The translations under genes were made by a program, and so were the position numbers. 64,000 nucleotides of DNA, taken from contig CAZYVD010000001.1 in assembly GCA_964651045.1 (NCBI GenBank), positions 87,144 to 151,143 of the forward strand, written 5' to 3'. The DNA comes from an uncultured bacterium. Lineage in GTDB: Bacteria > Zhuqueibacterota > QNDG01 > DSAB01. The notes beneath the pieces are model-generated. The model saw only the letters and a list, made by a program, of their open reading frames with translations, was not told where the DNA came from and ran no database searches. This document shows positions 2,120 through 56,222 of the stretch, one piece after another (positions within the stretch are counted from its first letter, which is position 1; every line of letters starts with the position of its first letter).

Positions 2120-4011
2120 ATGGTTGCTCCCCTGCCATATTTATCATACCAGGTTTCAAAAACCATGAGTGCCCATAGTTTATGGCTGTGGTTTTCAATG
2201 CCTCTTAAATGCTCATCTATCATATGGCTGATAAAATCAAAATTAAAAAACCCCTCCTCACGAATCCTCTTTTCATTGAGAAGATCCATCATCATTGGTC
2301 TCAGTTCTCCTCTTATCCAGTTCTTAATCGGAATACTGAAACCCTGTTTATCCCTTTTCTGCACCTCCTCAGGAAGATCGTTCCAGAATGTTTTCTTCAG
2401 AATATACTTTGTTTTGAGCCTCCTCATTTTCAACTCTGGAGGAAGCGAGAATGCAAACTCAACTATTCTGTGATCCAGATATGGCACTCTCGCCTCAAGA
2501 GAGGTTGCCATAGACATTCGATCCACCTTTACAAGTATATCGTCTACAAGGTAGGTCTTTAAATCTATATAACCAGATCTTGTAATATCATCCATACCGT
2601 CTGCCTCTATAGAGTAACGGTGAATAAAATCATAATGATCTGTAGATTTTATAACGTTCCATAAATCACCAGAAAATATTCTCTCCCTTTCCCACTCCTG
2701 TAGAAATGCCATCCATCTCGCATGATACAAAGAATCCGGCAGCATAGTACCCATCACATATCGCTTGAAACTGTTTATCGCACCCTTTTTTTTAGAAGTT
2801 GGGCGCAGGGCTGTAGCAGCCGACTCTATGATGGCTCTTCTTAAGACCCTTGGAATTCTGCTGTACACAATCCTGTCAAACATATGAGCCCTGTATGTAT
2901 CGTATCCAGCAAAAAGCTCATCCCCGCCATCTCCTGAGAGAGCAACGGTAACATAATCTCTGGCCATTTTGGAAACAAGATATGTCGGAAAAATCGAAAA
3001 ATCTCCAAAGGGCTCATCAAGATATGAGATCAGTTTTTCTGTTAGTTCAAGAACCTTAGGTTCAACGACAAATTCATGGTGTTCTGTTTCATATCTCCTG
3101 GCAACAGATCGGGCATATCTCAATTCGTTGTAGGAAGATTCTTTAAATCCTATAGAAAAAGTCTTCACAGGTGCATTAGCAATAAGTGCCATCTGTGAAA
3201 CCATTATTGAAGAATCTATCCCTCCAGATAGAAATGCACCAAGAGGCACATCTGATATGAGCCGCAGCCTCACAGAGTCTTTTAAAAGCTCTCTCAGATT
3301 CTCGGCAGCCTCCTCCTCACTCAATTTTCGTTGGTCTAAATTAAGCTTCCAGTAAGATTGAATGTGAATTCTGCCGTTCTTATATATGAGTAAATGACCA
3401 GGCATGAGTTTACGAATCTCTTTGAAAATCGATCTGGGTGCCGGAATATACTCAAAACTCAGGTAGTTGTTAAGGGCAACCGGATCTATATGTTTTTCAA
3501 TATCTGGCGATTTCAGAATGGCCTTTATCTCAGAACCGAACACCAGTTTTTCTTCATCTGTGTAATAATATAGCGGTTTGATTCCCAACCGATCCCTTGC
3601 AAGAACCAACACTCTCTCGCTGTTGTCCCACAGGGCAAAGCCAAACATTCCATTGAGTCGTGTGCAAACATCTACCCCCCATGATTCATATCCATGAACA
3701 ATGGTCTCTGTATCGCAGTTTGTTCTGAATCTGTGGCCAAGATCTTCGAGCACTCTTCTTATCTGTCGGTAGTTATATATCTCACCATTGAATACTATTG
3801 TTATAGACCCATCCTCATTTGACATTGGCTGGTGCCCGGTGAGTATATCTATTATTGAAAGTCGTCTCATCCCAAGCCCTGCCGATCCGATCACAACCTC
3901 GCCACCATCATCAGGTCCCCTGTGGAAAAGGGTGTCAGCCATTCTACTGAGCAGTTGCCGATCAGGCCCCCTTTTATTGTCCCTGTATACTATTCCGCAT
4001 ATTCCACACAT
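2116..4011 (-). CDS. asnB: asparagine synthase (glutamine-hydrolysing) family amidotransferase
   Basis: 631 aa beginning MCGICGI with the class-II GATase Cys2, followed by a PP-loop synthetase domain (SGGIDSS). Confidence 0.85.
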   Translation of the reverse strand: MCGICGIVYRDNKRGPDRQLLSRMADTLFHRGPDDGGEVVIGSAGLGMRRLSIIDILTGHQPMSNEDGSITIVFNGEIYNYRQIRRVLEDLGHRFRTNCDTETIVHGYESWGVDVCTRLNGMFGFALWDNSERVLVLARDRLGIKPLYYYTDEEKLVFGSEIKAILKSPDIEKHIDPVALNNYLSFEYIPAPRSIFKEIRKLMPGHLLIYKNGRIHIQSYWKLNLDQRKLSEEEAAENLRELLKDSVRLRLISDVPLGAFLSGGIDSSIMVSQMALIANAPVKTFSIGFKESSYNELRYARSVARRYETEHHEFVVEPKVLELTEKLISYLDEPFGDFSIFPTYLVSKMARDYVTVALSGDGGDELFAGYDTYRAHMFDRIVYSRIPRVLRRAIIESAATALRPTSKKKGAINSFKRYVMGTMLPDSLYHARWMAFLQEWERERIFSGDLWNVIKSTDHYDFIHRYSIEADGMDDITRSGYIDLKTYLVDDILVKVDRMSMATSLEARVPYLDHRIVEFAFSLPPELKMRRLKTKYILKKTFWNDLPEEVQKRDKQGFSIPIKNWIRGELRPMMMDLLNEKRIREEGFFNFDFISHMIDEHLRGIENHSHKLWALMVFETWYDKYGRGATI

Positions 4012-5180
4012 ATCTTCTCCATTGCTCTATTGAGTGCTTTTTTCAATTTTTCAACATAAACCGAATAGCTGTATTTTTCTTCTGCAACCCTCTTAGCATT
4101 TCTTCCGACTCTTGCCGCGACCCTTTTGTTTTTGAGCAGAAGAAGAATACCCTTACCAAAACTCTCTGGCGATGGTTCAGTAAGAAGTGCAGAATCTTGA
4201 TTCAGTACCTGTGTATGTGTAATGAGGTCTGTGGCAACGATTGGAACTCCTGACCGCATATAGGAATAGATCTTTAGAGGCGTGTTAGTACCAGACATCC
4301 TCGGCGAGAGCAGTATGTCGGCACACCTCACATAGCTATTTACCTCTTCAGGTAAAACCTGACCTGTAAAGATGAAGTGATCCTCTACTCCCTTCTCAAC
4401 GGCAATCTTTTTATAATGTTCTATCTGTTCGGGCCTGCCCCCAACCAAAACAAATACCACAGAATTAAATTCTGATAAAACACCAACGCTGCTTTCCAGC
4501 AGCAGATCAAGACCCTGATAGGGTTCAAATGTTCCTGTGTAGAGGGCCACCCTTCTCCCTTGAAGTCTTAGTGATTCTCTTATCTCGTCCGATCTATCGA
4601 TCTGTTTGAATATCATACCGTAATCAATGACATTTTCTATCATTACACTCTTTCCACCGAAACCAAGTCTTGTAACATAATTAAAAAGTTCGGGACATAT
4701 TGTGATAACACATGAAGAATTTTTAATCACCCACATCTCTATCATGTTAAAAATAGATACTACTATCTTCAAATTGGCAAATTGAAAATTCTTAAACTGC
4801 TGGGGCAGGCTTGAATGCATGTCATATATGTGCGGTATCTTAAAAATCTTTGAGAAGAGAGTACCCCAGAAGCAGGCCTCTTCATGAGTATGTATCAAAT
4901 CATAATCCTTTTTTAAAAGCATGATAAATGTTTTAACAAGTAGAAGAAGATCCAGAGGGATCTTTTCAAACGAGGGTCCTATCCTCACCTTCTTGATCCA
5001 GAATATTGGGGGGATACGCAATATACGAACGCCCTTTATCGAAACGTCCATGCCCATTGGATAAGTTACCAGATCGATTCTATGCCCAACATCAGAAAGC
5101 GCCTTTAAGCGTCCGACAACACTTAAAGGCGTTCCCCTAGGCTCAAATATCGGTTCTGGTGCGACCATTAATATATTCAT
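3990..5180 (-). CDS. glycosyltransferase family 1/4
   Basis: 396 aa with a GT-B fold C-terminal domain; EPS locus context. Confidence 0.75.
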   Translation of the reverse strand: MNILMVAPEPIFEPRGTPLSVVGRLKALSDVGHRIDLVTYPMGMDVSIKGVRILRIPPIFWIKKVRIGPSFEKIPLDLLLLVKTFIMLLKKDYDLIHTHEEACFWGTLFSKIFKIPHIYDMHSSLPQQFKNFQFANLKIVVSIFNMIEMWVIKNSSCVITICPELFNYVTRLGFGGKSVMIENVIDYGMIFKQIDRSDEIRESLRLQGRRVALYTGTFEPYQGLDLLLESSVGVLSEFNSVVFVLVGGRPEQIEHYKKIAVEKGVEDHFIFTGQVLPEEVNSYVRCADILLSPRMSGTNTPLKIYSYMRSGVPIVATDLITHTQVLNQDSALLTEPSPESFGKGILLLLKNKRVAARVGRNAKRVAEEKYSYSVYVEKLKKALNRAMEKICVEYAE

Positions 5181-21775: not shown

Positions 21776-22420
21776 TCATTCCCTGATCACAACCTTACCA
21801 CCAACAAACTCGACCCTTCCCTCTGCAAAGAGTTGAATTGCCTGCGAATAGAGCTCATGTTCAACCCTTAAAACTCTGGCCGCAAGTGTCTCTGGGGTAT
21901 CTCCTTCCTTAACAGCTACACACCTCTGAGCAACTATAGGCCCATGATCATATATCTCATCAACTATATGGACTGTTACGCCTGTGACCTTGCATCCCAT
22001 ATCGAGAACAGCCTGATGAACATGTTTCCCATACATTCCTCTTCCACCAAATGCAGGAAGAAGTGCAGGATGAATGTTCACGATTCTGTTTCTATACCGG
22101 CTGATCACCTCGGCTGGAACCTTTTTCATATATCCTGCAAGTGCAATAAAATCGACTCTGTGTGCCTCCAGCACAGAAAGGATTGCCTCTACAAAACAAT
22201 CTCTAGTTTTAAAATCCTTTTTGGAAATTATAACAAAATCAATTCCATTCCTCTTTGCAATCCTCAACGCACCCGCCTCTTGATTGTTCGTAATTAACAG
22301 TTTAACATCTGCACTTAGGGACCCTCTCTTAATGTTCTTAACAATTGCCTCAAAGTTTGATCCCCTCCCGGATGCAAAAACTCCCAACCTGAGCCTCTTC
22401 AATTTAGTACCCCCTTTCAT
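21776..22420 (-). CDS. purN: phosphoribosylglycinamide formyltransferase
   Basis: 214 aa formyl-transferase fold (GSNFEAI, HPALLPAFGG). Confidence 0.85.
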   Translation of the reverse strand: MKGGTKLKRLRLGVFASGRGSNFEAIVKNIKRGSLSADVKLLITNNQEAGALRIAKRNGIDFVIISKKDFKTRDCFVEAILSVLEAHRVDFIALAGYMKKVPAEVISRYRNRIVNIHPALLPAFGGRGMYGKHVHQAVLDMGCKVTGVTVHIVDEIYDHGPIVAQRCVAVKEGDTPETLAARVLRVEHELYSQAIQLFAEGRVEFVGGKVVIRE

Positions 22421-23721
22421 TCTACAGCCTCACTTAGAAGATCATATTCGGAACTTGCAGTTATCTTTACATTTACTATCCCGCCAATCTTTGCCTTCCC
22501 CTTTATCCATACTCTTTGATCCACCTCAGGAGCATCTCCCTGAGTTCTTCCAAAAAACAATTTCTCGTTCTCATCATATCCATCTACTATTACTGGAAGA
22601 CTCTTAGACTCAAGAGATCTATTTATCTCGGCAGATATCTCCCTCTGGGTATTCATGATGATATGATAACGCTCTTCAGCAACATTTCTTGGAACCGCAG
22701 GCCTCATACGATAAGCTGCTGTTCCTTCCTCTGGAGAATAAATAAATGCCCCCATACGTTCAAAACGAATATGTTTGACAAAATCTACAAGTTCCTGAAA
22801 CATCGTATCTGTTTCACCGGGAAAACCAACAATAAAGGTTGTCCTTATAACAATATTTGGAATCCTATTCCTGAGTTTAGATATTAGAAGCTCAATAGAT
22901 TCTTTTCTGCTTTTTCTCCCCATTGATCTTAATATAGAATCAGAAATGTGTTGAAAGGGAATGTCCAGGTACTTACATATCTTATCTTCATGGGATATAA
23001 GATCAATGAGTCTATCGTTTACACTATCAGGAAATGCATACATTATTCGAATCCAGCGGAGATCGCTGATCGAAACAAGCCTCTCCAGCAGACAGATCAG
23101 ATCGGTTCCGTTTCTTTGATCTGAGCCGTATGCCGTTGTATCCTGTGCTATTAGAATAAGCTCCTTTACACCTCTATCTACAAGGCTTTGTGCCTCATCT
23201 ATTACACTATTAATTGAGCGACTTCTGTATGGTCCTTTAATCATTGGAATAGCACAAAAACTGCAGCCATGATTACAACCATCTGCAATTTTTAGATATG
23301 CAGTATGGGGTAAGGTCGAAAGTATGCTGCGGTTTAGCTTCTTTTCATTCCAGGAGTATGAAGGGCCTAATATAAAAGAGCCTATCTCATTAAAAGACTC
23401 AACACCAAAGTATGCATCGACTTCTGGTATTTCCTGCTCAAGCCTTTCCTTATATCGCTGTGAAAGACAGCCGCAAACAACTATCTGTCTATCTCTTCCA
23501 TCCTTTTTAAGTTTGACTGCCTTAAGAATTGTATCTATTGATTCCTTTTTTGCTGCCTCTATAAATCCACATGTATTTATAATAATGGTATCTGCCTCTT
23601 TTTCATTGCCGACAAGAATCACTCCTCCCCTTACCAATTCACTTGCAATTACCTCTGAATCCACCTGATTTTTCGGACAGCCGAGTGTAATAATAGAGAT
23701 TTTTTTGTTAGATTTGATCAA
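22417..23721 (-). CDS. rimO: ribosomal protein S12 methylthiotransferase RimO (radical SAM MTTase)
   Basis: MTTase N-domain, radical-SAM CxxxCxxC (CNHGCSFC) and C-terminal TRAM. ORF-track start at 23787 reads through repeat A (encoding GGLGG from the CCCCCCAAGCCCCCC hairpin). A TTG at 23719-23721 giving LIKSNKKISIITLGCPKNQ is the more plausible start. Confidence 0.8.
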   Translation of the reverse strand: MIKSNKKISIITLGCPKNQVDSEVIASELVRGGVILVGNEKEADTIIINTCGFIEAAKKESIDTILKAVKLKKDGRDRQIVVCGCLSQRYKERLEQEIPEVDAYFGVESFNEIGSFILGPSYSWNEKKLNRSILSTLPHTAYLKIADGCNHGCSFCAIPMIKGPYRSRSINSVIDEAQSLVDRGVKELILIAQDTTAYGSDQRNGTDLICLLERLVSISDLRWIRIMYAFPDSVNDRLIDLISHEDKICKYLDIPFQHISDSILRSMGRKSRKESIELLISKLRNRIPNIVIRTTFIVGFPGETDTMFQELVDFVKHIRFERMGAFIYSPEEGTAAYRMRPAVPRNVAEERYHIIMNTQREISAEINRSLESKSLPVIVDGYDENEKLFFGRTQGDAPEVDQRVWIKGKAKIGGIVNVKITASSEYDLLSEAVE

Positions 23722-23725
23722 ATTA

Positions 23726-23985
23726 AATCCCCCCAAGCCCCCCACTTTTTCAAAGGAGGGGACTTGGTGACCGTTTGATAATAGCAATAACCTCTCTCTT
23801 ACTCCTTACTCCTTATTCCCTACTTCCAACTTTTAAGTTCGAAGTTCGAAGTTCGAACTTCGGACTTTCAACTTTCAACCCCCTCATCCCTTTCCCCAAT
23901 ATCCCCCTTTTTCAAAAGGGGGATTATAGTGGGACTTCCTGCCTGCACCCTGTACCCAATTCCACTACAATCCATAAATAAATTG
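23726..23985. repeat. repeat element copy A (hairpin-bearing, CT-rich heptamer and TTCGAA microsatellite core)
   Basis: Direct nucleotide comparison with copies B and C. Contains CCCCCCAAGCCCCCC..GGAGGGGACTTGG hairpin, tandem TACTCCT and GTTCGAA heptamers, CCCCCTTTTTTCAAAAGGGGG palindrome and a conserved GGGACTTCCTGCCTGCACCCTGTACCC tail. Confidence 0.8.
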
Positions 23986-24016
23986 CGTTCCACTATTCTA
24001 AGAAAAAAGCTTTCAA

Positions 24017-24424
24017 TCAACTTATGTCCGGTTCAGAAACCATTTTTTGCATTGTTCTTTCTGCTTCCTCAACGAACTTTCTTGCTCTTTTGATTTGTGT
24101 CTCGGCTTCTTCTTTTGTAATCACTACAAAATCACCGTAATCAGCATCCTCCCTGATATCCTTAGCCTTTGGTAGAAACTTACTAATTTCTTTTGGGAAA
24201 AGCTCCATTCTAGTAATATATTGATTAAATAATGCAATTACACCAGAGTGTTTGCTGGAATCCATCTCCTTTAATGCTAGAAGAGCTCTTGCTGAAGTAA
24301 ACATAGCATAATAACTTCTGTTAACCGAAAGTCCATAATGTTTCTGAGCAAGATTGTCTTCCGCTTCAGTTAGAATTTCTTTTGCCTTCTTTATTCTGTA
24401 CATTGCTAATTTCAGCCTACCCAT
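24017..24424 (-). CDS. HEPN domain protein (HEPN/MNT toxin-antitoxin-like module)
   Basis: 135 aa matching the HEPN PF05168-type pattern NRSYYAMF..ARALLALKE...KHSGVIALF...REDADYG. Overlaps the MNT gene by 8 nt. Confidence 0.8.
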   Translation of the reverse strand: MGRLKLAMYRIKKAKEILTEAEDNLAQKHYGLSVNRSYYAMFTSARALLALKEMDSSKHSGVIALFNQYITRMELFPKEISKFLPKAKDIREDADYGDFVVITKEEAETQIKRARKFVEEAERTMQKMVSEPDIS

Positions 24425-24764
24425 AAAGCAGAACTCCTTCTTTTTCTACTTGCTCGAAGAAAAACGAACCCAATCTTTTATTCTCTTTATACTCAAATAG
24501 GCTGTAAACTACGGGGGATATTGGAACATTATATTCAAAAAAATAATTTGCTGCTATATCACTTATCTTATCTCTAACATCCCCTTTTTCCTTAACCAGA
24601 ATGAATAAATCTACATCGGAATCTTTTTCAAAATCACCTCTTACTTTAGAACCAAATAACCGAATGGCCACAATATAATCACCCAACTTGTCCTTCAGTT
24701 CCTTTACAAAAGAATTTATCACTTTTTCTTCTGTTTTACTCAGGTATTGTAATTTTTTTATCAT
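24417..24764 (-). CDS. minimal nucleotidyltransferase (MNT) domain protein
   Basis: 115 aa with Pol-beta-type NTase motif LFGSKVRGDFEKDSDVDL. AAGGAGG Shine-Dalgarno is supplied by repeat B. Confidence 0.8.
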   Translation of the reverse strand: MIKKLQYLSKTEEKVINSFVKELKDKLGDYIVAIRLFGSKVRGDFEKDSDVDLFILVKEKGDVRDKISDIAANYFFEYNVPISPVVYSLFEYKENKRLGSFFFEQVEKEGVLLYG

Positions 24765-24912
24765 TACTCCCTCCTTTTCCCTTACTCCCTACTTTTAACT
24801 CTTCACTTCCGCTTCCGTTCTCTCCAATATCCCCCTTTCCAAAAAGAGGATTATAAGGTGATTTCCTGCCTGCTCCCTGTACCCAATTTCACCAGCAATC
24901 TATAAATTAAAT
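24765..24912. repeat. repeat element copy B (5'-truncated)
   Basis: Shares the CT-rich core, CCCCCTTTCCAAAAAGAGG palindrome and TTCCTGCCTGCTCCCTGTACCCAATTTCACC tail with copies A and C; lacks hairpin 1. Confidence 0.75.
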
Positions 24913-24927
24913 GGATATAAAAAGATT

Positions 24928-25282
24928 TCATAATCGATCGTGAATACTACTAACAACCCCTTCAATATTTTTAAGAACATCAATATTAGAAAACCTTAAA
25001 ACTTTAAGACCCAAACTACGAAGATAAAGATCCCGAACTCTATCTTTCTTCATACCTTCTTCTAAATAATGCTGGCCCCGTCTATTTCAATAACTATCTT
25101 CCTGGCAGGACAGTAAAAATCAACAATTTAATTCCCTATGGGTTTCTGTCTGTAAAACTGAACTCCCTTAAGCTGCTTTCTTCTAATCTTCGAACAGAGA
25201 AGCTTCTCAGCCTCTGTCATATTTTTCCGCAATTCTCTGGATATGGTTTTTAATCTCTTGTTATAGAGTAACAATATCGAAT
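24928..25282 (-). pseudogene. decayed DUF559 (Vsr-like endonuclease domain) gene
   Basis: Minus-strand translation gives RELRKNMTEAEKLLCSKIRRKQLKGVQFYRQKPIGN*IVDFYCPARKIVIEIDG, then a -1 frameshift before GQHYLEEGMKKDRVRDLYLRSLGLKVLRFSNIDVL. One in-frame stop where Tyr is expected, one missing G in a G-run, and no intact start (upstream stop lies in repeat C). Confidence 0.65.
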
Positions 25283-25490
25283 CCCCCCAAGCCCCCCTTT
25301 TTCAAAGGGGAGCTTAGCGACCTTTCGATAATAGCAATAACCTCTTTCTTACTTCTTACTCCTTATTTCCTACTTCGAACTTTCAACCCCCTCATCCCTT
25401 TCCCCAATATCCCCATTTTTCAAAAGGGAGATTATAGTGGGACTTCCTGCCTGCACCCTATACCCTTCACAACCCCGCAATCAATAAAAA
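25280..25490. repeat. repeat element copy C
   Basis: Near-identical to copy A over hairpin 1 and the AATAGCAATAACC spacer, the CT-rich heptamers, the CCCCATTTTTCAAAAGGGAG palindrome and the conserved tail; lacks the GTTCGAA expansion. Confidence 0.8.
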
Positions 25491-25582
25491 GATTACACCT
25501 CGGAAAGATCAACACTACCTCTTTTCTGTCAAACTTCATTCATAATTTATGATTCAAAACTCTGAATTCAAAATTGTCTATA

Positions 25583-26500
25583 TCACCCTAACATTCCCTC
25601 AACAAAAGCCTCTGCATCAAATGGGACAATATCCTCCAATCCCTCACCCAACCCTACCCATTTTACTGGAATTCCCAGTTCCTGATAGATCGATACTACT
25701 ATCCCGCCACGTGCAGTACCATCGAGCTTTGTGAGGACTATACCAGACACATCAACAGTCTCGGCAAACAATCTGGCTTGATTGAGACCATTCTGTCCTG
25801 TAGTAGCATCTATGACCAGAAGAACTTCATGAGGAGCAGTATCGCTCTTTTTCCTCAAGACCCTAAATATCTTCCCGAGCTCTTCCATTAAATTTACCTT
25901 TGTATGAAGTCTGCCCGCAGTGTCTATTATCAATATATCAACCCTACGTGCTATTGCTGCCTCTAAAGCATCAAATGCAACGGATGCAGGATCTGCTCCT
26001 GCACTCTGCCTGATTAGATCCGCACCAGCTCTCCTGCTCCATTCTTCTAGTTGTTCAGCAGAAGCTGCGCGAAATGTATCTGCACATGCAAGAAGTACCT
26101 TCTTATCTCTTTTCTTATACATATAAGCAAGTTTGCCAATTGTAGTGGTCTTTCCAGTACCATTAACCCCAACAATCAGGACTACATACGGCCTGTGTGT
26201 ACTATTGAGCTGCTCCCACTCAGATCGCACTCTTTCAATAAGAGTCTCTTTTAAAATTTCTCTCACTCCCTCCTCTGTAAATTTTCTGCCCTGCCTCATT
26301 CTCTGTCTGATCTGTTCTATTATATCCAGCGTAGTTTTTACACCTATGTCGCTTTCGATGAGTATCCTTTCCAGCTCATCAAGCATATCATCACTTATTC
26401 TTTTTCTACCTGCAAATAGACCGGCAATTTTCCCCAACACCCCTCCTCTTGTCCTTGCCAGTCCCTTCTCCCATAGTCTATCAGTATTCATCACTTTCAC
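25583..26500 (-). CDS. ftsY: signal recognition particle receptor FtsY
   Basis: 305 aa SRP54-type GTPase (GVNGTGKTTTIGKLA, DTAGR). Confidence 0.9.
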   Translation of the reverse strand: MKVMNTDRLWEKGLARTRGGVLGKIAGLFAGRKRISDDMLDELERILIESDIGVKTTLDIIEQIRQRMRQGRKFTEEGVREILKETLIERVRSEWEQLNSTHRPYVVLIVGVNGTGKTTTIGKLAYMYKKRDKKVLLACADTFRAASAEQLEEWSRRAGADLIRQSAGADPASVAFDALEAAIARRVDILIIDTAGRLHTKVNLMEELGKIFRVLRKKSDTAPHEVLLVIDATTGQNGLNQARLFAETVDVSGIVLTKLDGTARGGIVVSIYQELGIPVKWVGLGEGLEDIVPFDAEAFVEGMLG

Positions 26501-27063
26501 AAACTCTTCTCTTTTTCTTTTTCAATTCTTTTTAAAAATTCTCTTAAATATATGATACTCGAATATACAGTCAACATTAGTGCCGCATAGAGTGCAATCC
26601 ATGCAAGGGGTTGAACATTAAATATAAACAGTATTACTACAACGCCATTTGCAAAGGCAGAATTTTTTCCAGCCCTGTTGGACTCCATCACAATCTTCCT
26701 CTTTCTTATTACTAAGAGACCCCCAAGCAGTATTAATAGTTCACGCAAAAGAACCACTAAAAAATACCACAGGGGAAAATAGTAATCGGGACTTAATAGC
26801 AAGAAGACCAGAACTATCAATACATCAAGTTTATCAACAATTGGATCCAGAATGCGGCCAAAATCTGACTTCTGGTTAAACCGCCTTGCAATCCAACCAT
26901 CAAGAAAATCGCTTGCAACACCTGCCAGCATCCATACAAAGGCCAGAAGTTTTTGGCCACTGCTTAGATTTATTATGATAGGAAACACCACGCCAAAGCG
27001 AAATAGAGTCAATAAATTTGGTAAAGTCCACACCTTCATCTTTTCTTTCACCAATTTCCTCAT
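26497..27063 (-). CDS. CDP-alcohol phosphatidyltransferase family protein
   Basis: 188 aa polytopic protein with a perfect CDP-OH-P motif DGWIARRFNQKSDFGRILDPIVD (D-G-x2-A-R-x8-G-x3-D-x3-D). Confidence 0.8.
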   Translation of the reverse strand: MRKLVKEKMKVWTLPNLLTLFRFGVVFPIIINLSSGQKLLAFVWMLAGVASDFLDGWIARRFNQKSDFGRILDPIVDKLDVLIVLVFLLLSPDYYFPLWYFLVVLLRELLILLGGLLVIRKRKIVMESNRAGKNSAFANGVVVILFIFNVQPLAWIALYAALMLTVYSSIIYLREFLKRIEKEKEKSL

Positions 27064-28232: not shown

Positions 28233-28405
28233 AAAATCTCCACAGCTCCTATTGGACAGACGTCTCTGCATTCACCGCATAGGATACATTTTTTGGTGTC
28301 TATAGCTATATCCGACTCTCTTAATTCAATTGCATCTTCGCTGCACACCGCAACACATGCACCACAAAAGTCACACCTGTTAATATCTATTATAACCTTG
28401 CTCAT
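28229..28405 (-). CDS. 2x[4Fe-4S] ferredoxin
   Basis: 58 aa, below the ORF-track cut-off. Minus-strand translation: MSKVIIDINRCDFCGACVAVCSEDAIELRESDIAIDTKKCILCGECRDVCPIGAVEIL, with two CxxCxxCxxxCP clusters. Its stop overlaps the start of the reductase. Confidence 0.75.
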   Translation of the reverse strand: MSKVIIDINRCDFCGACVAVCSEDAIELRESDIAIDTKKCILCGECRDVCPIGAVEIL

Positions 28406-28418
28406 ATTGTAAACCTCT

Positions 28419-54302: not shown

Positions 54303-54796
54303 ATCTGTGCCTTAAAGCAAGACGTGGCATGAGACGCTCTCTTGGTACATACGCACCAGCCTTACATCTGGTTCCCAAACTCCTGTTTGGAAACCCAGAT
54401 GTGTTAAAAACTCTGTTTTGATTGAGCACTACTTTTGGACGGAGGCGCATCAGCGTCGCTTTTAAAAGCTGCAACATGCTCGCGCAATCCATAAAAAGAG
54501 AATGCCTATATTTTTGTTCGTACTGAGCAGTGGATTTATATTTCTTCAAGGAATTATATTTTGGATGATAAACCTGTTATTAAGGTTAATAAAAGTTTGG
54601 TTATTTGATATGTAGAAACAGAGTTTCTTTTCAGAGTAGCGTTCTTAAACTGAAGTTTGGGAACGAAGAGAAAGTCGGCTGCCAGTTTCTGAATGATTGC
54701 TTTTTTGGTGTTCTTAGATTTCAGACGCTTCATACCGTAGTTATGTTTTACATCTACAATAGAGATTCTCCTTGATAATTTTGACTCTTCTATCAA
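54289..54796 (-). pseudogene. IS200/IS605-family tnpB (OrfB) C-terminal remnant
   Basis: Minus-strand ORF contains RRISIVDVKHNYGMKRLKSKNTKKAI...LQFKNATLKRNSVSTYQ, which aligns to the TnpB RuvC-II/linker region (vIvvEdLnvkGMlkn.klakai...leYKa...gk.v..v...yTSq). Split into two short frames and lacks the N-terminal two-thirds. Confidence 0.5.
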
Positions 54797-54845
54797 ATAT
54801 ATGAATTCTTATGGTCATATGCACTAAAGTTAAATACAGATCTTC

Positions 54846-55838: not shown

Positions 55839-55899
55839 AACATTAAAATATACAATCCGACTTAAATAGATACAAGAATAAATACAACAATTTATTTAT

Positions 55900-55928
55900 C
55901 TTGCATTTTAACCTATTTTTTTGTATAA
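55900..55928 (+). promoter_or_regulatory. sigma70-type promoter of rpmB
   Basis: TTGCAT - 17 bp - TATAAT. Confidence 0.6.
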
Positions 55929-55965
55929 TTATTGTCAAAAATAATATATAGTTGATGGGGAAGAT

Positions 55966-56160
55966 ATGGCAAAAAAATGTGAAATCTGCGGCAAGGGTCC
56001 GATTGTTGGAAACAATGTGAGTCATGCTCACAATCTAACAAAACGGCGCTGGCTTCCCAACCTTCAGCGAGTTCGTATCAAAGTAAACGGCCAGACCCGC
56101 AGAATACGTGTATGCACAAGATGCATCCGTTCGGGTAGTTTAGAGAAACTCTCTTCATAA
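55966..56160 (+). CDS. rpmB: 50S ribosomal protein L28 (zinc-ribbon form)
   Basis: [34 protein letters not shown]..., with CxxC...CxxC. Confidence 0.9.
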
Positions 56161-56165
56161 AAATC

Positions 56166-56198
56166 GGGTGCCCGAAATGGGCATCCCTCTCTTTTTTT
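56166..56198 (+). terminator. rho-independent terminator after rpmB
   Basis: GGGTGCCC-GAAAT-GGGCATCCC hairpin followed by CTCTTTTTTT. Confidence 0.6.
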
Positions 56199-56222
56199 CC
56201 TTCCATTTTAAAGAGGTGAGCA

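Follow-up and report, generated by a model that had tools for sequence, protein, structure and literature searches.

Insertion hotspots that are flanked by core genes and accommodate defence and toxin-antitoxin islets are a general concept in bacterial genomics. Repeats may also occupy the gaps within operons, as exemplified by the mycobacterial interspersed repetitive units (MIRUs) in mycobacterial operons, which comprise tandem units of 46-101 bp at ~40 loci, with small open reading frames (ORFs) overlapping the flanking genes. A further kind of reused non-coding DNA, the putative mobile promoter, has been delimited as sequence that recurs upstream of non-homologous genes with an identity of 80% or more across no fewer than 50 nt (PMC3575422). 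Here we describe a repeated element, element E, in a 64,000-nucleotide stretch (the window; contig CAZYVD010000001.1, positions 87,144 to 151,143) of the genome of an uncultured bacterium of the Zhuqueibacterota. Three diverged direct copies of E, all in the same orientation and read on the minus (coding) strand, are located between ftsY and rimO, and we consider it highly probable that E is a conserved mosaic module that has been triplicated around two inserted cassettes at an insertion hotspot. The copies are non-coding and 163-308 bp in length. On the minus strand, the order runs from a pgsA-like gene (26497-27063) through the features listed below to purN:

25583-26500, minus strand: ftsY (Pfam SRP54), the conserved upstream flank of the insertion hotspot
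25275-25582, minus strand: full-length copy C of E, filling the space from the ftsY stop to the TTG start of DUF559
24928-25274, minus strand: first cargo, a DUF559 (endonuclease-like) pseudogene, with two Pfam fragments in different frames (profile positions 2-43 and 69-107)
24765-24927, minus strand: copy B of E, separating the DUF559 stop from the ATG of MNT
24017-24764, minus strand: second cargo, the overlapping toxin-antitoxin genes MNT (24417-24764; Pfam NTP_transf_2) and HEPN (24017-24424; Pfam HEPN)
23722-23995, minus strand: copy A of E, directly upstream of rimO and abutting its TTG start (23721)
22417-23721, minus strand: rimO (Pfam UPF0004, Radical_SAM and TRAM), the conserved downstream flank; its 434-aa product (TTG start) is the same as database protein P0001

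A preliminary description of this DNA had listed three same-orientation, intergenic copies upstream of minus-strand genes, and all of the features it named are present in the sequence. The three copies are real, but their limits have been refined to those given above, with copy C extending ~85 nt further upstream on the coding strand, to ~25574, in a segment (ext) that is kept in a relative. A repeat search of the window recovered a three-copy family (23838-23957, 24765-24884 and 25346-25465; identities of 100, 64 and 86%, respectively) and a second family of 79 nt, common to copies A and C at 86% identity. When compared to shuffled sequences, the tail motif TTCCTGCCTGCWCCCTRTACCC is found three times in the window (0.00 expected), the spacer box twice (0.06 expected) and the palindrome context twice (0.00 expected), while the hairpins of E are present within the window at this locus only. 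Together with a fourth copy from a related species (contig L040), approximately 150 alignment columns are common to all copies, over which A and C share 87-88% identity. Copy B is the most diverged, with blastn identities of 79% to A (124 nt), 73% to C and 75% to the L040 copy. In the 5′ part of E, copies A and B have a common insertion (GTGrAATTGG) while C and the L040 copy have AGGGTATAGGG and ext, and as such the three copies are not simple recent duplicates of each other. Only one polymorphism was observed in E between samples, at window position 23925, where the coding-strand TATAAT becomes TATATT in contig L002; a -10-like hexamer is kept and one stem pair of hairpin H2 (described below) is broken. 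The other five differences in this 4.2-kb contig all fall within ftsY, and no variation in the copy number of the heptamer array of E was seen between samples. Exact-protein look-ups gave only the same strain, the contigs of which end at the E repeats. By sequence, E is a member of no described family. The suggestion that it is not ordinary intergenic DNA is borne out, in that E is a discrete modular element reused before non-homologous genes.

The junction between ftsY and rimO was compared with the regions surrounding RimO homologues on their contigs (L040-L045), which are arranged as follows, with the identity of each RimO to that of the window:

L043 (64%): UbiA-Fer4-GGR-pgsA-ftsY, 12 bp, rimO; the window order without the island
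L045 (63%): pgsA-ftsY, 29 bp, rimO
L044 (62%): ftsY, FGE-sulfatase, Y1 transposase, rimO; three gaps filled by an unrelated repeat
L040/L041 (72%): prmA, a 327-bp gap homologous to E including ext, rimO
L042 (73%): prmA, 7 bp, rimO; without E

In the window, 1861 bp (23722-25582) separate ftsY and rimO, and the empty junctions of 12 and 29 bp in L043 and L045 indicate that these represent an insertion into an operon junction, which corroborates the earlier proposal that the repeats bracket an inserted island. The ancestral string is UbiA-Fer4-GGR-pgsA-ftsY-rimO-purN, with ftsY and rimO 12-29 bp apart, and the ftsY|rimO junction is an insertion hotspot. The E homologue of L040/L041 shares 70.6% identity with copy C over 252 nt (blastn E = 2e-29; nhmmer 8e-36). 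E thus adjoins the start of rimO in two species, behind different upstream genes (ftsY and prmA), while L042, L043 and L045 do without it; L042 and L040 share 82% amino acid identity in RimO and ~82% nucleotide identity in the flanking DNA. At the junction of L044 (Ga0172362_10004871; 2850-5150), an unrelated intergenic repeat of 132 nt is present in triplicate, at identities of 87% and 69%, together with 13 hairpins (GCATrAArGCnnCGCAGTCC) resembling repetitive extragenic palindromic (REP) sequences, with both repeats and hairpins confined to this junction. The Y1 transposase encoded there (Y1_Tnp) resembles REP-associated tyrosine transposases (RAYTs) and those of IS200. The source contig of the window (197 kb, k141_144813, L049) and the L041 contig (k141_311678) derive from the same assembly sample (ERZ27248458), showing that the two species co-occur and making horizontal exchange of E possible. 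Relatives of FtsY in the GTDB genomes share at most 54% identity and no synteny, and were uninformative.

The conservation of E between species is far above the neutral level. The core of copies A and C shares 73-74% identity with the L040 copy (over the ~150 common columns), while the identity of RimO between the window and L040 is 72% for the protein and 75% for the nucleotides, with values of 57% for third codon positions and 51% for four-fold-type synonymous sites. At this divergence neutral intergenic DNA would no longer align, and identity of ~74% in E compared to ~51% at synonymous sites suggests either that purifying selection has acted on E or that E was transferred once the two species had separated. 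This bears on the view that the copies are functionless, being passive duplicates or hitch-hikers of successive recombination at the hotspot that are tolerated for want of terminators, which we consider rather improbable. The confinement of the copies to one locus, the truncation and divergence of copy B, the decay of one cargo gene to a pseudogene and the lineages that do without E would all agree with such an origin. The cross-species identity, however, argues for constraint or recent transfer, and certain blocks are invariant across copies, namely the 5′ box, TATAAT, the H2 stem, ATATTGG and AAGTAGGGAATAAGGAGTAAG.

Read 5′ to 3′ on the coding strand, E is composed of ext, the 5′ box, a G-rich block, hairpin H2, a G-tract run, a period-7 array, a box, hairpin H1 and a run of six G residues (G6), located in the three copies as follows:

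Copy C, minus strand: ext ~25495-25574; 5′ box 25478-25488; G-rich tail 25438-25465; TATAAT 25431-25436
Copy C, minus strand, continued: H2 25409-25432; period-7 array 25346-25376; box GATAATAGCAATAAC 25327-25341; H1 25287-25317; G6 25283-25288
Copy B, minus strand: 5′ box 24896-24906; tail 24857-24884; TATAAT 24850-24855; H2 24829-24851, with two G.U pairs
Copy A, minus strand: 5′ box 23968-23978; tail 23930-23957; TATAAT 23923-23928; H2 23901-23924 (extended palindrome ~23896-23935)
Copy A, minus strand, continued: G-tract run 23879-23907; array 23798-23879, including GTTCGAA x3; box 23777-23791; H1 23733-23767; G6 23729-23734

The ext segment is AT-rich and, in the relative, itself 7-nt periodic. 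The 5′ box reads TTTATnGATTG, the G-rich block GGGTAYAGGGTGCAGGCAGGAAGTCCC, the G-tract run GGGGGATATTGGGGAAAGGGATGAGGGGG and the box following the array GTTATTGCTATTATC. H2 is built of an outer UCCCA/UGGGG helix around a 10-bp inner stem (AUCCCCCUUU/AAAGGGGGAU), which together enclose invariant CUAUAAU and AUAU, and its arms (CCCnCTATAATCCCCCTTT/AAAGGGGGATATTGGGG; 17 nt) are 82% complementary in L040. H1 (33-35 nt) and H2 are homologous sub-repeats, both REP-like palindromic units, with H1 occurring only in copies A and C. The CT-rich heptamers and the GTTCGAA/CTTTCAA expansion of the preliminary description are present, but form a single continuous period-7 array whose length varies by copy. 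On the coding strand this array is degenerate and purine-rich, with units such as TTGAAAG, TTCGAAC and TAAGGAG, the last combining a stop codon and a Shine-Dalgarno motif, and comprises ~12 units in A (23798-23879), ~5-6 in C and ~16 in L040; the periodicity was confirmed in these three copies. Copy B ends within the heptamer array and is without the spacer box, H1 and G6. The G6 run lies 7-8 nt ahead of the TTG start, and the junction G6-ATTyrAT(A)-TTG is common to DUF559 and the rimO genes of two species.

Some further observations can be made on these parts. A G-quadruplex motif (GGGGG-ATATT-GGGG-AAA-GGG-ATGA-GGGGG; candidate GGGGGAUAUUGGGGAAAGGGAUGAGGGGG) is found on the coding strand at 23879-23907 in A and 25387-25415 in C, is imperfect in L040 and is lost in copy B. 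As its first tract doubles as the 3′ arm of H2, hairpin and quadruplex would compete. In the rimO-adjacent copies (window 23787-23722; L040 8698-8733), the box GTTATTG contains a TTG from which an open frame continues into rimO. An extension of RimO from this codon (+22 aa in the window, +12 aa in L040) was judged probably coincidental, as it is not conserved, crosses H1 and begins at a TTG skipped by the gene callers. Elsewhere in the window, a 543-bp gap (54303-54845) with neither Pfam nor Rfam assignment contains a stretch (TCTTTTTATGGATTGCG, ~54483-54499, minus strand) agreeing with the 5′ box of E at 16 of 17 positions, as well as a long near-perfect inverted repeat, ACATCTGGGTTTCCAAAC-AGGA-GTTTGGGAACCAGATGT.

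The TATAAT of E had been proposed to be an outward promoter, a claim that is weakened by the present analysis. The hexamer is unchanged in each of the four copies, even in the diverged copy B, but no -35 hexamer is found in any copy, the hexamer lies inside the extended palindrome of H2, and a consensus scan detected no sigma-70-type promoter on the coding strand within E, while three clear-cut promoters in other parts of the window have the form TTGACA-17-TATAtT. E may nevertheless be a mobile promoter/operator cassette, with TATAAT as a real -10, a transcription start in the 5′ arm of H2 and the perfect ATCCCCCTTTT/AAAAGGGGGAT palindrome, which overlaps -10/+1, as the operator of a dimeric repressor; this we regard as possible, if unlikely. 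Its corollary, that duplication of E (promoter capture) served to activate each acquired cassette and give rimO a promoter of its own, appears similarly doubtful. Besides the invariance of the hexamer, E and ext hold the same 5′ boundary behind ftsY and prmA, as would be expected of a regulatory region complete in itself, and the single polymorphism, TATATT, would stay a good -10 while breaking a stem pair. Furthermore, copies A and C fall within the sequence definition of putative mobile promoters (PMC3575422), being 86% identical across stretches of 79 and 120 nt and 87-88% identical in the 150 shared columns, while A versus B is borderline at 79% over 124 nt, and promoter capture by duplication is documented for the activation of transferred genes (PMC6614815). 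A transcript starting after TATAAT would, however, drop the 5′ arm of H2, the substitutions of which keep RNA pairing, and an ancestrally operonic junction has no need of a promoter.

Other kinds of signal were likewise sought. No terminator-like site was found in 23600-25700; the genuine terminators of this genome consist of a GC hairpin followed by a T run. Coding potential of E was rejected, the sense strand having stops in all frames, while the antisense frames stay open only as a result of the pyrimidine-rich composition of that strand. A dif/Xer-like site, a sigma-54 promoter and a Bacteroidetes-type promoter were rejected by eye, their defining motifs being absent.

The hairpins appear better suited to the sense than to the antisense RNA. 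Robust folds of E are limited to the local hairpins H1 and H2 and, in copy A, the GTTCGAA palindrome. In every copy, the sense (minus-strand) RNA gives the more stable form of H1 and H2 compared to the antisense RNA, with the widest differences in the diverged copies (H2 of B: -9.5 versus -3.7 kcal/mol; H2 of C: -7.7 versus -4.5; H1 of C: -25.0 versus -14.3; H1 of A: -22.9 versus -17.5). Across the four sequences, seven of the ten H2 pairs are invariant and three have one-sided C to U changes giving G.U pairs, with no two-sided changes; two C to U differences in H1 of copy C also give G.U pairs. A single G to U transversion breaks a pair in H2 of copy C, such that 97.5% of the H2 cells are paired. 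Since a G.U pair in one strand corresponds to an A.C mismatch in the other, the pattern favours hairpins acting in mRNA, which in turn suggests a transcript starting upstream of TATAAT and argues against this hexamer as the only promoter.

Despite these local structures, the idea of a structured small RNA finds no support. The window contains no Rfam match at the gathering score, and only chance-level matches were obtained at E <= 10 in 23600-25650; only the local hairpins fold robustly, and one of 17 pairs shows a two-sided change. That E encodes a free-standing small RNA, or a rimO leader sensing a ligand or protein (riboswitch-like, CsrA-binding or G-quadruplex-based), is accordingly very hard to credit. 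Approximately 11 GGA motifs and the sense-strand G-tract run of A and C (GGGGG-N5-GGGG-N3-GGG-N4-GGGGG) could be read in this way, as could the association of E with rimO in two species. The G-tract run is, however, degraded in B and imperfect in L040, sense-strand fold z-scores are modest (-2.3, -2.8 and -0.8), copies also precede unrelated genes, and most relatives have no leader at all.

The cargo consists of two horizontally acquired mini-cassettes, the DUF559 nuclease gene and the MNT-HEPN pair, with one copy of E before each gene unit. Homologues of MNT (70-79% identity) are common in RadC-MNT-HEPN operons without E, and the MNT-HEPN pair itself shares 74-76% nucleotide identity with such operons on unrelated contigs, indicating that E does not travel with the MNT cassette. 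The stretch homologous to these operons starts either with the ATG or within the 18 nt preceding it, where they carry GAGGGGAAAAGGG, suggesting that AAGGAGG is the ribosome-binding site (RBS) of the cassette itself and probably not part of E. The last ~18 nt of copy B (GGGAAAAGGAGGGAGTA) are thus probably the native RBS of the MNT cassette, and the proposal that E supplies the Shine-Dalgarno sequence of MNT is weakened.

The gene-repeat-gene-repeat layout, with promoterless and precisely delimited small cargo of the sort that cassettes usually carry, is also what would be expected if E were the recombination site of a cassette-capturing system, whether integron-like, akin to the clusters of attC sites lacking integron-integrases (CALIN), or of RAYT/IS200 type acting on palindromes, with its recombinase encoded elsewhere. 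The same layout at the same junction in L044, beside a Y1 transposase and REP-like hairpins, and the REP-sized imperfect palindromes H1 and H2 point in this direction. We nevertheless consider this explanation very unlikely, since no recombinase or transposase was found among the ~17 of roughly 55 window genes scanned with Pfam, E has neither an attC-like fold nor R''/R' ends at its 163-308 bp, the copies are 65-88% identical where near-identity would be expected of an active array, and MNT-HEPN relatives elsewhere are without E. Integration of the island at an RNA gene was rejected, there being no tRNA or tmRNA genes.

The preliminary description had also likened E to mobile elements of the miniature inverted-repeat transposable element (MITE) or REP type. 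Copies A and C and the L040 copy have no terminal inverted repeats, only the internal palindromes (H1, H2 and the GTTCGAA array), and no target-site duplication beyond 2-3 nt of G was seen in comparisons of the filled L040 with the empty L042 or of the window with L043 and L045. Mobility of this kind is accordingly not supported, and neither is dispersal to other loci. No further copies were found in the 64-kb window or 9.4 kb of the adjoining contig (L049), together ~73 kb of a genome that is probably several Mb long, in 20 kb of the relative, or, using a profile with nhmmer --max, in ~520 kb of this genome and its relatives, ~450 kb of which came from the relatives. Scans with the tail motif, which is not kept in the one known homologue and as such has low sensitivity, gave no matches in the GTDB species genomes, while in the JGI metagenome contigs they gave the source contig and two chance matches in high-GC coding DNA (L008 and L009). 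Viral contigs scanned with two core motifs gave no matches, blastn against plasmids and phages detected no E, a concatenated six-frame pseudo-peptide of all copies matched nothing as a protein query, and a profile of the antisense pseudo-ORFs recovered only unrelated repeat proteins among 1.84 billion representatives. As far as the data reach, E has so far been confined to one locus.

The explanation we tentatively favour, although it falls somewhat short of probable, is that E is a lineage-specific, mosaic intercistronic linker or leader, portable and reused at the insertion hotspot. RNA polymerase would read through E within a long minus-strand polycistronic mRNA, there being no terminator and no convincing promoter. 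The two REP-like palindromic units would form RNA stem-loops affecting the stability or processing of mRNA segments, the period-7 array would provide TAA stops in all three frames along with Shine-Dalgarno motifs (TAAGGAG), and the terminal G6, 7-8 nt before the TTG, would restart translation of the next gene. In this manner E may allow promoterless cargo to sit in an essential operon without polar effects. Its copies would have arisen by recombination, either through duplication and capture or through exchange among the E elements of strains of co-occurring relatives; their origin by transposition is unlikely.

Several points weigh against this linker. The hairpins show almost no covariation, RNAalifold finding in only four sequences one two-sided change among 17 pairs, with a covariation term of -0.19 kcal/mol. 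The G.U asymmetry rests on five substitutions and could be explained by a C to T mutation bias. The invariance of TATAAT, including at non-pairing positions, fits a promoter or protein site as well as an RNA role, and stops in three frames are expected in any 200-nt non-coding stretch. Moreover, the ~73 kb of this genome that were searched leave room for dispersed copies, and read-through and function at the RNA level are inferred from sequence.

A bolder reading is that E and, separately, the triple repeat of L044 mark an undescribed, integrase-independent form of stacking of promoterless cassettes inside an essential operon, to which we give little credence. A linker of stop codons, hairpins and Shine-Dalgarno motifs would then be both the recombination substrate by which cargo is taken up at ftsY|rimO and the means of keeping the essential genes downstream expressed, making it a functional analogue of the integron with another site and mechanism, a proposition that is equally speculative.

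If the linker interpretation is correct, E would illustrate how a very compact genome accepts foreign toxin-antitoxin and nuclease genes mid-operon by means of a reusable non-coding adaptor, without silencing the essential genes that follow (rimO, purN, purH, mreBCD and rodA), with the ftsY|rimO junction defined as an insertion hotspot in an uncultivated lineage. Should E instead be a promoter, it would be a clear example from nature of how promoters are reused and captured for horizontally acquired genes. Either way, it constitutes a compact natural part, with no terminator, stops in three frames and tandem Shine-Dalgarno motifs, that could be useful in operon engineering.

The surrounding region of the window (1046-51499) comprises ~50 kb of genes, nearly all on the minus strand and with gaps of few bases. 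Directly after rimO follows purN in the window, while a GWxTD-domain gene is found in between in L040, L044 and L045 and an unidentified gene is located at this position in L042 and L043; the window lineage has apparently lost the GWxTD-domain gene. Two gaps in the list of ORFs of at least 150 aa hold a putative 4Fe-4S ferredoxin-like peptide (28272-28418), as in L043, and a predicted ribosomal protein L28 gene (rpmB; 55839-56222, plus strand).

E can be compared with several classes of repeat and insertion system. Like MIRUs, it is a repeat in operon gaps compatible with continued transcription and translation, but it is a 165-310 bp mosaic at one locus. The ftsY|rimO junction resembles other core-gene hotspots in holding different cargo by lineage (the window and L044) and being empty in L043 and L045, and differs in that it lies inside an operon and that, in two lineages, each inserted gene has its own lineage-specific repeat. 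With integron attC arrays and CALIN, E shares co-oriented, promoterless small cargo (toxin-antitoxin and nuclease genes) parted by a repeated element. An attC site is, however, 57-141 bp in length and forms one long R''-L''/L'-R' hairpin with RYYYAAC/GTTRRRY cores, whereas E is 163-308 bp long and shows no end-to-end complementarity, no single long hairpin and no GTTRRRY at the cassette boundaries. No integron integrase was found among the ~17 window genes scanned with Pfam, and E is located ahead of each gene, also giving the RBS context.

Greater likeness is seen to the REP sequences and bacterial interspersed mosaic elements (BIMEs) associated with RAYTs, as E is a mosaic of ~35-40 nt imperfect palindromic units (H1 and H2, within the 20-40 nt typical of REP units) and other boxes, and to the pneumococcal BOX element (boxA-boxB(n)-boxC), as it contains an internal module of variable copy number. 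In common with these classes E is extragenic, lies inside operons, lacks a terminator tail and has hairpins plausible as RNA. It differs from them in having three plus one known copies, all at the rimO junction, and no sequence similarity to them. The palindromic units of E are direct rather than inverted, no RAYT/Y1_Tnp protein was detected among the ~17 window proteins scanned (the Y1_Tnp of L044 accompanies an unrelated repeat), and its variable module is a 7-nt array compared to the 45-nt boxB of BOX. Putative mobile promoters (Matus-Garcia, Nijveen & van Passel 2012; PMC3575422) share with E the occurrence of highly similar non-coding sequence before non-homologous genes of one genome, also in another species, with neither an Rfam family nor a known mobile element attached, but promoter activity of E is putative, the -35 is missing, and its copies are clustered at one locus, where they part cassettes within an operon, rather than scattered over unrelated transcription units. 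On present evidence E is not a new class of mobile element or RNA. By kind it is closest to the putative mobile promoters and to REP/BIME or BOX mosaics, while integron arrays are alike only in architecture.

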